A stretch of DNA of 64,000 nucleotides from contig OY764216.1 in assembly GCA_963668315.1 (NCBI GenBank), forward strand, positions 4,736,001 through 4,800,000. The letters are read 5' to 3'. The stretch's first letter is position 1; each line of letters opens with the position of its first letter. The notes beneath the pieces are model-generated. The model made no database searches, was not told the origin of the DNA, and was given only the letters and a program-made list of their open reading frames with translations. Source of the DNA: Spirochaetia bacterium (GTDB taxonomy: Bacteria; Spirochaetota; Spirochaetia; DSM-2461). A program made the position numbers and the translations under genes. Of this stretch, positions 15,414 to 19,437 are shown piece by piece.

Positions 15414-15437
15414 CTCCAAAAATAAAGGATTTTGTCC

Positions 15438-15911
15438 ATGAAATGCCCTTTCTGCGGAAAGTTGGATGACAAAGTACTGGAATCGCGTCAGAACGGAATA
15501 GGAACGACTATCCGTAGACGAAGGGAATGCCTTTCCTGCGGTTACCGCTTTACATCCTATGAAAAAATTGAAGAAATAACCATCAAGGTTATCAAAAGGG
15601 ACGGAAGCCGGGATCCATTCGATAAGAAGAAAATAGAGCGGGGTCTGCTCAGAGCGATTGAAAAGCGCCCCGTGTCCCAGCTGGAGATCGATGACATCCT
15701 TAATGCCCTTGAGGATGAAGTCGAAATGAAATGCCGGGCGACCCATGAAATCCTGGCTTCAGAACTGGGTGACATGGTAATGGACAGGCTGTTTGATCTT
15801 GATAAGGTTGCTTATGTCCGCTTTGCTTCTGTCTATCAGAAGTTTGAGGGCGTAGAGGAATTTGTCGAGGTTATTCACAATCTATCTAAAAAAAATAACA
15901 AAAAAAAATAG
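15438..15911 (+). CDS. nrdR: Transcriptional repressor NrdR
   Basis: MKCPFC..DKVLESR..IRRRREC..C..RFTSYE, ATP-cone, DKVAYVRFASVY. Confidence 0.96.
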   Translation: MKCPFCGKLDDKVLESRQNGIGTTIRRRRECLSCGYRFTSYEKIEEITIKVIKRDGSRDPFDKKKIERGLLRAIEKRPVSQLEIDDILNALEDEVEMKCRATHEILASELGDMVMDRLFDLDKVAYVRFASVYQKFEGVEEFVEVIHNLSKKNNKKK

Positions 15912-15954
15912 AGAACAACGTAGTTGTTCATTAACATGCCTGTAAGGAGACAAC

Positions 15955-18060
15955 GTGACTAAGGGAGAAACTACGGACTGGAAACAGTTCCTTGGAGTGG
16001 AGAAGGGCTCCTCCGACCTGTCTAATTTCGCGGTTAAGCGGATTATCAAACGAGACGGGACTATAGAAAAATACAGCAGGGACAGAATAGCGGAGGCGAT
16101 AGAAAAAGCCATTACCGCCGTAGAGGATTCATCCGATGAAGAGCTGGCGACAATGCTCACCGACGCGGTGGAACAGAAACTTGTCCTTTTCATGGAAGGC
16201 CGCCATCCCAATTCCATCCCTGCCGTGGAGGAGATCCAGGATATCGTGGAAACGGTCCTGATCGAAAGCAAGAGGGTGGATCTGGCCAAAGCCTACATCC
16301 TCTACAGGGCTAAGCACGAAGCGATCAGGGATGCACAGAAGCTGATGCTCGATATTAATGAGACCATGGACGGATACCTGTCCCAGGCAGACTGGAGAGT
16401 GAATGAGAATGCGAATGTCAATTTCTCACTGGGAGGACTCATTCTCCACAATTCCGGCACGGTAACGGCCAACTACTGGCTCAGGAACATCTACTCAGCC
16501 GATGTGGCCGACGCCCATAAGTCGGGTGCCATGCATATCCATGACCTGTCCATGTTCTCCGGCTACTGCGCCGGCTGGTCCATCAGGCAGCTCATAGCAG
16601 AAGGTCTGGGCGGTGTACCCGAGAAAATCACCTCCAAGCCGGCGGCTCACCTTTCCACTCTGGTCTTTCAGATCGTCAACTTCCTGGGAATTATGCAGAA
16701 CGAATGGGCCGGAGCCCAGGCTCTTGCCAGCTTCGATACCTACCTGGCTCCCTTTGTGAAGGTGGACAATCTCTCCTTCAAGGAAGTGAAGCAGTGCATC
16801 CAGAGCTTTGTCTTCGGAGTCAACACTCCTTCGCGCTGGGGTTCTCAGGCTCCTTTTACCAACATTACCATGGACTGGACCGTTCCGGCCGACCTGGCGG
16901 AGAAAGCGGCTATCGTAGGCGGAGAGGAACAGGATTTCACCTACGGCGACTGTAAGGCCGAGATGGACATGCTCAACAAAGCCTTTATCGAGCTGATGCT
17001 TGAGGGAGACGCAAGCGGAAGAGGTTTCGCCTACCCCATCCCTACGTACAACATTACCGAGGATTTTGACTGGGAGTCACCCAATTCCCAGCTGCTCTTC
17101 GAAATGACGGCCAAATACGGTACACCCTATTTCCAGAATTTCATCAATTCCGATCTGAATCCCAGCGACGTGCGTTCCATGTGCTGCCGTCTGCAGCTGG
17201 ATAAACGGGAGCTGAGGAAACGGGGTGGCGGACTTTTCGGATCGGACGAGTTCACCGGTTCACTGGGCGTTGTCACCATCAATCTGCCCCGCATCGGTTA
17301 TCTGGCCGAGAACAAGGTGGATTTTTACGCCCGTCTGAGCCATATGATGGATCTGGCCTCCGAATCTCTGGTTGTGAAGAGAAAAGTGATCAGCCATCTT
17401 CTGGATGCGGGTCTATTCCCCTATACCAAGCGGTATCTCCAGCACTTGAACAACCACTTCTCCACCATCGGTCTCGTGGGTATGAACGAATGTCTCATCA
17501 ATTTCATTGGGAAGGACATCACCACCGAAGACGGAAGCCGTCTGGCCGAAGAGATCCTTGATTTCATGAGAAAACGGCTGGCCGATTATCAGGAGGATAC
17601 GGGCGACCTTTACAACCTGGAAGCGACTCCCGCGGAGAGTACCAGTTACCGCCTGGCCCTTCACGACAAGAAGCACTACCCGGAGATTCTTACCGCCGGC
17701 ACGGAAGACTCTCCCTACTATACCAACTCGACTCAGCTGCCCGTCAACTTCACCGAAGATCTTTTCGATGCGCTTGACCGACAGGATCCCCTGCAGACCA
17801 AGTATACGGGCGGAACCGTATTCCACGGTTTTCTCGGGGAATCCATCAAAGAGTGGAAGAGCTGTATGGAACTGGTAAAGGCCATCTGCAACAACTACCG
17901 CCTGCCCTATTTCACGATCTCCCCCACCTACTCCATCTGTCCCTGCCACGGATACCTGGAAGGGGAACACTTCAGCTGTCCCCACTGTGAAAAGGAGCTC
18001 GAGCAGGCCAGAAAGGAATTGCAGAAGCTGGAAGAGGACAGGGAAACGATCGCCGGTTAG
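15955..18060 (+). CDS. nrdD: Anaerobic (class III) ribonucleoside-triphosphate reductase, large part lacking the glycyl-radical motif
   Basis: ATP-cone, HIHDL, SMCCRL finger loop, NLEATPAES, YTGGTVFH, C-terminal CPCH..CPHC Zn site; ends before any R-x-x-G-Y motif. Confidence 0.93.
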   Translation: MTKGETTDWKQFLGVEKGSSDLSNFAVKRIIKRDGTIEKYSRDRIAEAIEKAITAVEDSSDEELATMLTDAVEQKLVLFMEGRHPNSIPAVEEIQDIVETVLIESKRVDLAKAYILYRAKHEAIRDAQKLMLDINETMDGYLSQADWRVNENANVNFSLGGLILHNSGTVTANYWLRNIYSADVADAHKSGAMHIHDLSMFSGYCAGWSIRQLIAEGLGGVPEKITSKPAAHLSTLVFQIVNFLGIMQNEWAGAQALASFDTYLAPFVKVDNLSFKEVKQCIQSFVFGVNTPSRWGSQAPFTNITMDWTVPADLAEKAAIVGGEEQDFTYGDCKAEMDMLNKAFIELMLEGDASGRGFAYPIPTYNITEDFDWESPNSQLLFEMTAKYGTPYFQNFINSDLNPSDVRSMCCRLQLDKRELRKRGGGLFGSDEFTGSLGVVTINLPRIGYLAENKVDFYARLSHMMDLASESLVVKRKVISHLLDAGLFPYTKRYLQHLNNHFSTIGLVGMNECLINFIGKDITTEDGSRLAEEILDFMRKRLADYQEDTGDLYNLEATPAESTSYRLALHDKKHYPEILTAGTEDSPYYTNSTQLPVNFTEDLFDALDRQDPLQTKYTGGTVFHGFLGESIKEWKSCMELVKAICNNYRLPYFTISPTYSICPCHGYLEGEHFSCPHCEKELEQARKELQKLEEDRETIAG

Positions 18061-18135
18061 GGAATAGCCGTTTTTCGTTACACCTTTGGAAAATAATCTG
18101 CCTTGACCCGCTCAAGGCATACGAGGAGAGAGATA

Positions 18136-18756
18136 ATGACATTAGAAAGCATAGACAGCAGAATTGACGAAATCAATAACAGAATCAAAGCGATTGAAGG
18201 AAGACCGACGGAAGTCTACAGCCGCATCGTAGGATATTACCGCTCCGTTAAAAACTGGAACAATGGAAAAAGCGCCGAGTATAAAGTACGCAAAACCTTC
18301 ATGGAACCGGAAATTACGCCCTGCCAGCCCCCGGTCCTCAATGTGGAGTTCATAGATGAAACACCCGTGGCAGAACAGGCCGTTGCCGTAACGGAAGCCG
18401 CGGCGGAAACTGTAAGCAGTGATGCCGATGACAGCCAGGCCGATCTCTTCGCCATGGACGATGCTCCCGCCGTATCTTTATCGGCAGATGAAGTGGGAAG
18501 CTACTCTTTCTTTTTCCGGAATACCTGTCCCAATTGTCCCCCTGTAAAGGAATTGATCTCCCAGCTTGGATGGGATGGACAGCATATCAATGTGGATGAG
18601 GAAGAGGGTCTAAATGCGGCAGTGGAGCATAACGTATTCACCGCCCCCACGGTCATCGTCTTCTCCCCCGAGGGAAATGAGATTTTCCGGACCGATAACG
18701 TAAAGGGCCTGAAAGAGTTCATAGAGAGCAGTGCCCAGACCGTCTCTGCCGTTTAA
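18136..18756 (+). CDS. NrdD glycyl-radical domain fused to a glutaredoxin/thioredoxin-like domain
   Basis: TEVYSRIVGYYRSVKNWNNGK (NrdD C-terminal Gly-radical motif), acidic linker, TCPNCPP and TAPT redoxin motifs; own SD GAGGAG at 18123. Confidence 0.88.
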   Translation: MTLESIDSRIDEINNRIKAIEGRPTEVYSRIVGYYRSVKNWNNGKSAEYKVRKTFMEPEITPCQPPVLNVEFIDETPVAEQAVAVTEAAAETVSSDADDSQADLFAMDDAPAVSLSADEVGSYSFFFRNTCPNCPPVKELISQLGWDGQHINVDEEEGLNAAVEHNVFTAPTVIVFSPEGNEIFRTDNVKGLKEFIESSAQTVSAV

Positions 18757-19437
18757 ATGAAATTCGGATTGCAGAAAACCACTTTACTCGATTATCCGGG
18801 TAAAGTGGCGGCCATTCTTTTTACACCCGGATGTAATCTCCGCTGCCCCTATTGTCATAATCCGGAACTTGTTTCCGGAGGAGATGATGAGGGGCTCATC
18901 AGTCTTGATGAGGTTCGGGCTTTTCTTCTCAAACGCTCTTCCGTCCTGGGCGGTGTCGTCATCACGGGCGGAGAACCATTACTCCACGGGAATAAAATCC
19001 TGGACCTTATCAATGAAATTCACTCGCTGGGACTTTCCGTAAAAATCGATACGAACGGTCTCTTTCCCGATTTGCTTCCCCTTCTCGGGGCAGATTTCAT
19101 AGCCATGGACCTTAAAACATCTCCTTTACGCTATGGTGAACTGGGCTGCGGAATGCCCGATTATCAGGAGAGACTGAAGCGTTCAGCCCGATGGATCATT
19201 GAATCGGGAATAGAACACCAGTTCCGTACAACCCTTTGCGAAGACTTTATCAAAGAGAAGGATGTCTCCGATATGGCGGATCTTATACAGGGCTGTCAGA
19301 GTCACCGTATAACCCCTTTCCGCCCCGGCAGAACGCTGCACAGGGATTGGATCGACAAACCGGCTCCTTCGGGGGAATACGTGGAAATGATTAAAGAACT
19401 CTTTATAAAAAAAGGAATCCCCAGTCATACAGCATAA
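18757..19437 (+). CDS. nrdG: Anaerobic RNR activating enzyme (radical SAM)
   Basis: LLDYPGKVAAILFTPGCNLRCPYCHN, ITGGEP, DTNG, FRTT. Confidence 0.92.
   Translation: MKFGLQKTTLLDYPGKVAAILFTPGCNLRCPYCHNPELVSGGDDEGLISLDEVRAFLLKRSSVLGGVVITGGEPLLHGNKILDLINEIHSLGLSVKIDTNGLFPDLLPLLGADFIAMDLKTSPLRYGELGCGMPDYQERLKRSARWIIESGIEHQFRTTLCEDFIKEKDVSDMADLIQGCQSHRITPFRPGRTLHRDWIDKPAPSGEYVEMIKELFIKKGIPSHTA

Follow-up and report, generated by a model that had tools for sequence, protein, structure and literature searches.

A class III ribonucleotide reductase in two genes: a probable two-chain enzyme with its glycyl-radical site on a separate small protein in Spirochaetota

Descriptions of class III ribonucleotide reductase (RNR) give it one catalytic chain, which ends in a glycyl-radical domain. 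A locus in DNA from a Spirochaetia bacterium (GenBank assembly GCA_963668315.1, contig OY764216.1, positions 4,736,001 to 4,800,000 of the forward strand; this whole stretch of 64,000 nucleotides is called the window) raises the question of whether the radical site can be a protein of its own. Here nrdD stops short of the glycyl-radical motif, and the next gene encodes that motif together with a redoxin. The observation of a split class III RNR holds, and the split is confirmed to be no artefact. The products of the two genes likely make up one enzyme, in which the small chain would be clipped to the large one by a coiled coil and a shared strand. This two-chain layout appears to be a new form of class III RNR.

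The gene order on the plus strand, as read from the sequence and open reading frames (ORFs) of the window, is nrdR, large nrdD, small gene and nrdG. The two central genes and their parts are as follows (aa, amino acids; pLDDT, the local confidence score of structure models; pN and pS, non-synonymous and synonymous differences per site).

15955..18060, plus strand: large chain of the class III RNR, 701 aa, GTG start (NF006126, 1093 bits; PF13597, 581 bits; PF03477)
16567..16569, plus strand: C205, putative beta-A cysteine (43/43 split homologues; role by analogy with section 2.5 of PMC9669993)
17176..17190, plus strand: finger loop S-M-C-C-R (408-412), double-cysteine type with Met (43/43; MCCR type of PMC9669993)
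17938..17988, plus strand: Zn site C662-x2-H665...C675-x2-C678 (four ligands invariant in 43/43)
17989..18057, plus strand: putative docking helix A, the C-terminal heptad helix of the large chain (heptad hydrophobicity in 43 homologues; model contacts at 681-700)
18058..18135, plus strand: gap with stop TAG 18058-18060, in-frame TAA 18094-18096 and Shine-Dalgarno sequence GAGGAG 18123-18128 (sequence; contigs)
18136..18756, plus strand: small chain, 206 aa, comprising docking helix B, Gly-radical module, linker and redoxin (729 homologues of 113-361 aa)
18142..18195, plus strand: putative docking helix B, the N-terminal heptad helix of the small chain, residues 3-20 (heptad hydrophobicity; helix 3-19 at pLDDT >90)
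18199..18309, plus strand: Gly-radical module (PF13597 532-562; R30-I31-V32-G33-Y34 invariant; pN far below pS)
18232-18234, plus strand: predicted radical Gly33, within the Gly-radical module
18310..18495, plus strand: variable linker, predicted disordered (about 15-82 aa in 43 homologues; pLDDT 49-66; pN about 0.4)
18496..18738, plus strand: thioredoxin/glutaredoxin-fold domain with cis-Pro motif TAPT (C131, C134 and P171 invariant; Foldseek; PF00462 in 27/43 members)
18526-18537, plus strand: CPNC of the redoxin domain (C131 and C134 invariant)

The sequence bears out what the initial annotation, made from the letters alone, had described. NrdD ends after its Zn site and a heptad tail (TAG at 18058-18060), and a second ORF follows in frame behind two stops, with a GAGGAG that ends 7 nt before the ATG at 18136. 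The large ORF runs to ...SICPCHGYLEGEHFSCPHC-EKELEQARKELQKLEEDRETIAG directly before the TAG, and RxxGY is absent from it; the chain contains an ATP cone, the catalytic barrel, the Zn site and the putative docking helix, without a Gly-radical loop. The small ORF has the order that was claimed for it, namely a heptad helix, YSRIVGYY..WNNGK, an acidic Ala/Pro/Asp linker of about 62-65 aa, CPNC and TAPT. Thus, the RxxGY loop expected at the C-terminus of the same chain in class III is supplied in trans by a separate gene, while the other marks of the class are present: an NRDD barrel, C205, C410 and C411, the Zn site (C662, H665, C675, C678), and an adjacent, dedicated radical-SAM activase, NrdG (TIGR02495 over its cut-off). 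Family profiles break at the gap. Positions 1-533 of 562 of the Pfam model NRDD (PF13597) fall to the large chain and 532-562 to the small one; NF006126 divides likewise (2-660 of 684 and 649-682). Neither a tblastn search nor a six-frame motif scan of the 5.62-Mb genome turned up a second nrdD or a further convincing class III Gly motif; the motif in the window is the only convincing one, as four further regex matches lack the following WN motif.

Is the split a real property of the genome? Three contigs from three runs of one sample, possibly the source (X1-X3), show 0 differences over the stretch. A relative from a second study (X5/X6) differs at 56 positions in 851 nt without insertions or deletions, and both stops are unchanged among the 40 of 56 differences listed. 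The stop check was made on contigs, not raw reads; a further contig (X4) did not reach the stops. Among 41 related genomes, the small protein was matched in 29, always in frames of 162-249 aa. The large gene could be read in 28 of these 29; a stop separates the two genes in all 28, and they lie in different frames in 20. In one genus (g23), three single-contig genomes have the large gene about 600, 95 and 133 kb away from the small gene, and therefore read-through is excluded for the family. In this genus the small gene is found beside nrdG (read in G055 and G277) and the large gene beside nrdR, and the helix is retained in the large chains. The earlier argument against a single-base error or read-through is upheld by the identical contigs, the split in 28/28 readable relatives and the unlinked genes; nor is this copy a decayed singleton among unsplit homologues.

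The split extends through much of the phylum. The Gly module was matched in 151 of 301 Spirochaetota genomes; among the 150 of 188 matches listed, 13 lie in frames >600 aa and 137 in short frames. A survey for split nrdD with redoxin-fused small subunits, as the initial annotation had proposed, covered 7 of 64 parts of the named genomes and the best 80 loci. Of these, 52 are split, all in Spirochaetota, 19 are fused, and nine have no readable upstream gene (two truncated fused genes and seven small chains). The nearest homologues carry spirochaete names, which marks the host as a spirochaete. In 119 of the 120 small-chain homologues listed, the helix, Gly motif and CxxC are found together with no Zn site; in homologue records the gene is annotated as hypothetical or glutaredoxin. 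In 43/43 split homologues, C205, S408-M-C-C-R412, all four ligands of the Zn site and R30-I-V-G33-Y34 are invariant. In a comparison with two genomes of the same genus, pN/pS is 0.03-0.04/0.5-0.6 for the barrel, 0.03-0.04/0.66-0.96 for the Gly module, 0.15-0.17/0.5-0.8 for the redoxin, 0.15-0.19/0.55-0.93 for the helices and about 0.4/0.76 for the linker. These comparisons establish purifying selection on every folded part of both chains, as the sequences at large establish the gene split, its conservation and the integrity of the catalytic residues. The layout is real, conserved and probably functional.

Indirect support for anaerobic nucleoside triphosphate reduction through a glycyl radical comes from genomes that seem to have no other RNR. 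No class I or II catalytic match was found in 17 of 55 genomes with the split. When 13 of the 17, at >=90% completeness, were retested, four had a second NrdD and one a monomeric class II enzyme. The split enzyme is the sole RNR found in the other 8/13, which are 92-99% complete; in any single one of these, a gap in the assembly might conceal a gene. The genome studied here also encodes class I NrdAB and class II NrdJ (G000:C1:1542000-1545700 and 4820488-4822728; L199, L200). In much of the phylum, the radical site stands on a 20-kDa protein of its own, which in some genomes belongs to the only RNR found.

How might the two chains meet? The initial annotation proposed a heteromeric RNR docked by a coiled coil, and heptad conservation, the way the helices track the split, and model contacts support this. 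The large-chain tail is hydrophobic in 88-91% of 43 homologues at three heptad positions, and the small-chain head in 81-100% at positions 3, 6, 10, 13, 17 and 20; both helices are present in 52/52 named split loci. In fused relatives the helices are mostly missing: among 111 long homologues, the spacing from the Zn cysteine to the Gly strand is 4-9 residues in the 50 without a redoxin; in the 61 with one, it is 4 residues in 41, 9-52 in 18 and unmeasurable in two. One such one-chain protein (P0133) has both helices joined through a short turn, as a hairpin; its single-sequence model has a mean pLDDT of 37.7 and is confident only at this hairpin (682-728). The two-chain model that the initial annotation had called for (large 133-701 with small 1-62) places the helices in contact and scores 0.83, against 0.00 for the best of three controls; the pass mark was attained by 116/157 solved and 2/215 mismatched pairs. 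Its runs have >=96% contact agreement and a partner pLDDT >=81. Helix contacts (large 681-682, 685-686, 688-689, 692-693, 695-696, 699-700; small 1-3, 6-7, 9-10, 13-14, 16-17, 20-21) follow the heptad register. The best-placed pairs are those of the strand, small 25-29 against large 658-662, which resembles one-chain structures, and the pass is therefore owed partly to this likeness. The helix pair has no counterpart in five class III sequences among solved structures, and the net charges of the helices show no consistent complementarity. The model supports the predicted binding, without demonstrating it. Helix A (large 681-700) would pair with helix B (small 1-21) and the strand with the Zn site; the coil would take over from the lost peptide bond.

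The closest known system is one-chain NrdD with NrdG, of the double-cysteine type (Thermotoga maritima 4COI/4U3E, Prevotella copri 8P23, T4 1H78; NF006126/PRK08270). It shares the barrel, ATP cone, beta-A cysteine, finger-loop CCR, Zn site, RxxGY loop, NrdG and NrdR, whereas here the Gly-radical loop is separate, two heptad helices flank the cut and a redoxin is attached; the split, helix and redoxin layout occurs in none of seven matches to solved class III sequences. The thioredoxin-dependent NrdD2 of Neisseria bacilliformis has in common the double-cysteine finger loop able to form a disulfide with the beta-A cysteine, but with SCCR lacking Met and a free thioredoxin, in contrast to MCCR and a tethered redoxin (PMC9669993, PMC9176816). 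In the class I Grx::NrdB of Facklamia ignava, one subunit carries both a radical and a fused glutaredoxin (Grx) shown to be its reductant, but the radical is metal/tyrosyl and O2-dependent; the same paper records a single grx::nrdD fusion, one-chain and untested, in a Lachnospiraceae genome (PMC6187632). A C-terminal part is also separate in class II NrdJa/NrdJb of Pseudomonas aeruginosa and the class I alpha chain of phage Aeh1, which belong to other classes and whose separate piece stores no radical (PMC3267527, PMC9669993); split domains have been called distinct to class II (PMC9669993). GrcA/YfiD, a small protein that stands alone, likewise consists of a strand, a Gly-radical loop and a helix and completes a barrel in trans, but it backs up an intact pyruvate formate-lyase (PFL) with its own Gly loop (PMC8683613). 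Here the large chain has no such loop, and the small chain would therefore be obligatory; it is present in one copy per genome. GrcA/YfiD is also of a different family: PF01228 has no match at this locus, and its two matches in the genome lie elsewhere, in frames of 750-792 aa (PFL-type glycyl-radical enzymes), with no stand-alone match of GrcA size. The literature covered records split class I and II RNRs, Grx::NrdB, one grx::nrdD and YfiD (PMC9669993, PMC6187632, PMC3267527, PMC8683613; also PMC13450708, PMC4390871, PMC545781, PMC3019208, PMC4493059, PMC9176816, PMC12288474, PMC2795772, PMC9531940). No description of a split class III RNR was found in this open literature; non-open papers and supplements lay outside its scope, and a prior mention is possible. 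One RNR survey removed sequences <400 aa (PMC9531940), and such length filters would retain the large chain without its radical domain and lose the small chain.

The history of the split was examined in a barrel tree of 60 rows (IQ-TREE, LG+G4, no mixture, outgroup chosen by the author; P0121, a likely assembly artefact, was left out, and L105 is cut by a contig end). All 33 split rows fall in a clade of 47 (support 95/97); its outgroups are one-chain forms with no helices, the majority of them bearing a redoxin. The 14 fused rows inside the clade form four groups, which makes five changes in all; a single clade of split rows is rejected (p-AU, the approximately unbiased test, 0.026). Within one inner group (100/99), insert lengths are 52, 46, 30, 26, 15, 9 and 4 residues. 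The simplest reading is that a one-chain NrdD-redoxin fusion was cut once, just after the Zn site, and that lineages repeatedly re-fused and lost the helices again; the redoxin fusion would then predate the split. A tree of 126 rows, from which 10 rows without a cleanly cut core and 28 near-duplicates were dropped, places a second split, helix-less and redoxin-less, in another NrdD clade. Loci of this second type (L051-L070; G141, G188, G173, G235, G275 and others) have Gly-module genes of 45-70 aa, commonly with orphan extras, and one (L070) has a tandem pair; re-fused forms with long linkers are nested inside it. In a further genome a second, distant NrdD is split as well, its Gly module lying in a frame of 56 aa (G111:C85:35062-37214).

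From family knowledge, NrdG would install the radical on Gly33, whose loop is predicted to sit in the barrel as in one-chain NrdD, and the radical would pass to a finger-loop cysteine (410/411). The small chain would be a constitutive, roughly 1:1 subunit, and the two gene products would form one working enzyme. With its SMCCR loop and C205 the enzyme could undergo disulfide chemistry. It is somewhat probable that electrons from thioredoxin reductase (TrxR) reach the C205/finger-loop disulfide through the tethered CPNC redoxin, which would re-reduce it, formate being an alternative. The redoxin model (122-201) has a pLDDT of about 95 and thioredoxins as top Foldseek matches; a CxxC and a cis-Pro (C131, C134, P171) are invariant in 43/43, these rows having been chosen as redoxin-bearing. 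The domain falls just under curated cut-offs for PF00462 (22.7 vs 22.9) and is also under that of TIGR02194. The double-cysteine loop (CCR at 410-412) is of the NrdD2 type. Here, a Met, which that type lacks before its Cys pair and which permits formate, is invariant at M409 in 43/43 (PMC9669993). E512 and E556, invariant and each aligned with a Glu of T. maritima, are two candidates for the active-site Glu that serves as proton source in the NrdD2 type.

Several points weigh against this picture. The complex score is probably driven by Gly-loop and barrel contacts that resemble solved one-chain structures, and heptad helices readily pair in models. As to the redoxin, among 140 loci searched with flanks of 1-3.5 kb, trxB stands beside no split spirochaete locus; in genus g23 the small chain lacks the domain, and no redoxin homologue was found in 4/4 of its genomes, in a search that had no positive control. 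The tethered reductant is thus likely, yet one lineage at least can do without it. As for the tree, it was built under LG+G4 with no mixture, has no root beyond the chosen outgroup and takes its fused rows from metagenomic predictions, at least one of which (P0121) is a likely artefact. The stretch occurs in none of six RNA runs listed, which has no bearing on expression. Overall, the case for a two-chain enzyme is built on sequence and models.

Why should the small chain be separate at all? It is possible, though less likely than not, that the gene was cut without benefit, that the pieces complement each other and that the helices compensate, which is compatible with the structure of the two-chain enzyme favoured here. 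Such neutral fission fits the repeated re-fusion followed by helix shrinkage, from 52 down to 4 residues in one clade, and the fact that another NrdD clade was split independently at this place, without helices, and has also re-fused. However, the split is kept across many families of the phylum, and at least two independent splits at one site suggest a recurring advantage.

A fairly unlikely alternative to reduction by the tethered redoxin is that formate drives turnover, the domain being a relic or serving some other redox purpose. Because the redoxin was fused before the split arose and has been lost in one lineage, formate may still be a reductant. The invariant M409 and the statement that MCCR enzymes hold parts for either formate or thioredoxin (PMC9669993) favour formate, as do the loss in g23 and the lack of an adjacent trxB. 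Set against this are the invariant CxxC and cis-Pro of the redoxin-bearing rows, purifying selection on the domain, the efficiency of a fused Grx as reductant in class I RNR (PMC6187632) and the presence in this genome of one TrxR over its cut-off. Among the 20 fused non-spirochaete loci in the search of 140 loci, 17 adjoin a trxB-like gene. One-chain NrdD-redoxin fusions followed by a trxB-like gene (L178, L182-L198) come mostly from Bacillota records.

The initial annotation also proposed a replaceable small subunit that limits O2 damage, a possible reading that the evidence as a whole does not support. It is rather doubtful that O2 cleaves the small chain at Gly33 and that a fresh one exchanges onto the large chain in the manner of GrcA/YfiD, and similarly doubtful that the small chain is a swappable radical-and-reductant cartridge which phage-like elements carry to recharge the host enzyme. 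For PFL, it is established that O2 cuts the chain at the glycyl radical and that YfiD rescues the enzyme (PMC8683613). Separate control of the two chains is possible, since in g23 the small gene has kept its place beside nrdG and the large gene has moved together with nrdR. The helix-less type has extra, orphan and tandem Gly-module genes, with 2-4 matches in 25 of the 151 matching genomes, and a complete small chain lies in a phage-like stretch (L180) of a genome without a large-chain match. On the other hand, the helix type has one copy per genome (38/38 same-class genomes with a match, and 29/29), and 14 of 45 gene pairs overlap or lie <=3 nt apart, which indicates 1:1 synthesis. By the model, cleavage at Gly33 would leave a bound stub (1-32; helix B and the pairing strand) that must leave first. 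About four re-fusions have occurred, and the class I and II RNRs of this genome provide alternatives that are O2-proof. The 1:1 subunit may bring exchange after O2 damage as a side benefit; if true, the cartridge would be the first case outside PFL of a repair system for a glycyl-radical enzyme. The small chain of the phage-like stretch (L180:3486-3935), complete at 149 aa with the helix, Gly loop and CPNC redoxin, lies between an SNF2 helicase, short unknown ORFs and a DNA polymerase III alpha that carries a UDG domain; the 1.2-Mb assembly yielded no large chain. A scan of viral contigs with the small chain, which detects close relatives only, gave 11 pattern matches and 0 confirmed, and nothing relevant was found in the literature on how an oral treponeme expresses these genes under O2 stress.

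Still less probable is a role in activation, in which NrdG would install the radical while the small chain is free or only loosely bound, and the loop flip-out of one-chain enzymes would be avoided. The small gene abuts nrdG and remains with it when the large gene moves, and loop flip-out is the accepted activation model (PMC8683613). Yet free YfiD is a poor activase substrate (PMC8683613), the radical on a free chain would be unprotected, and the coiled coil argues for a lasting tether. Finally, there is next to no chance that the locus is an artefact, a pseudogene or a single chain made by read-through or frameshift, all of which were rejected: the shared frame in this genome and a check on contigs leave little room for it against the two stops and Shine-Dalgarno sequence, the stretch kept in three runs and a diverged relative, differing frames, purifying selection and, for the family, the decisive unlinking of the genes in several genomes.

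The supported structure, a small chain docked onto the large chain by a coiled coil, would offer a natural system in which radical installation, transfer and re-reduction are accessible on a small soluble piece that can be combined with the barrel; repair of O2 damage through exchange of the subunit would be directly testable in it as well.

The two central genes are flanked by the regulator and the activase:

15432..15911, plus strand: nrdR, RNR transcriptional repressor and first gene of the cluster (TIGR00244, 179 bits, cut-off 124.65)
18757..19437, plus strand: nrdG activase, radical SAM, abutting the small gene (TIGR02495, 159 bits, cut-off 131)

The stop of the small gene and the start of nrdG are contiguous (TAAATG). 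In most split loci the large gene is preceded by nrdR; in genus g23, nrdR-nrdD is followed by an SPFH/Band 7 gene (L041, L044, L071-L073, L201). Two hairpins stand in the 75-nt gap, at 18054-18070 (followed by a T run) and at 18099-18119. An internal regulatory element in the gap was rejected as shown, because these hairpins are not above shuffles and the gap is not conserved among relatives. A scan for promoters and terminators gave 7 and 6 sites, vs 4.6 and 5.2 in shuffles, and a pattern resembling the NrdR box gave 5 matches vs 2.2 expected, with 12 of 100 shuffles as high, which is uninformative. A palindrome at 15913-15929 lies at the end of nrdR, just upstream of the Shine-Dalgarno sequence of the large gene, and may be an operator.

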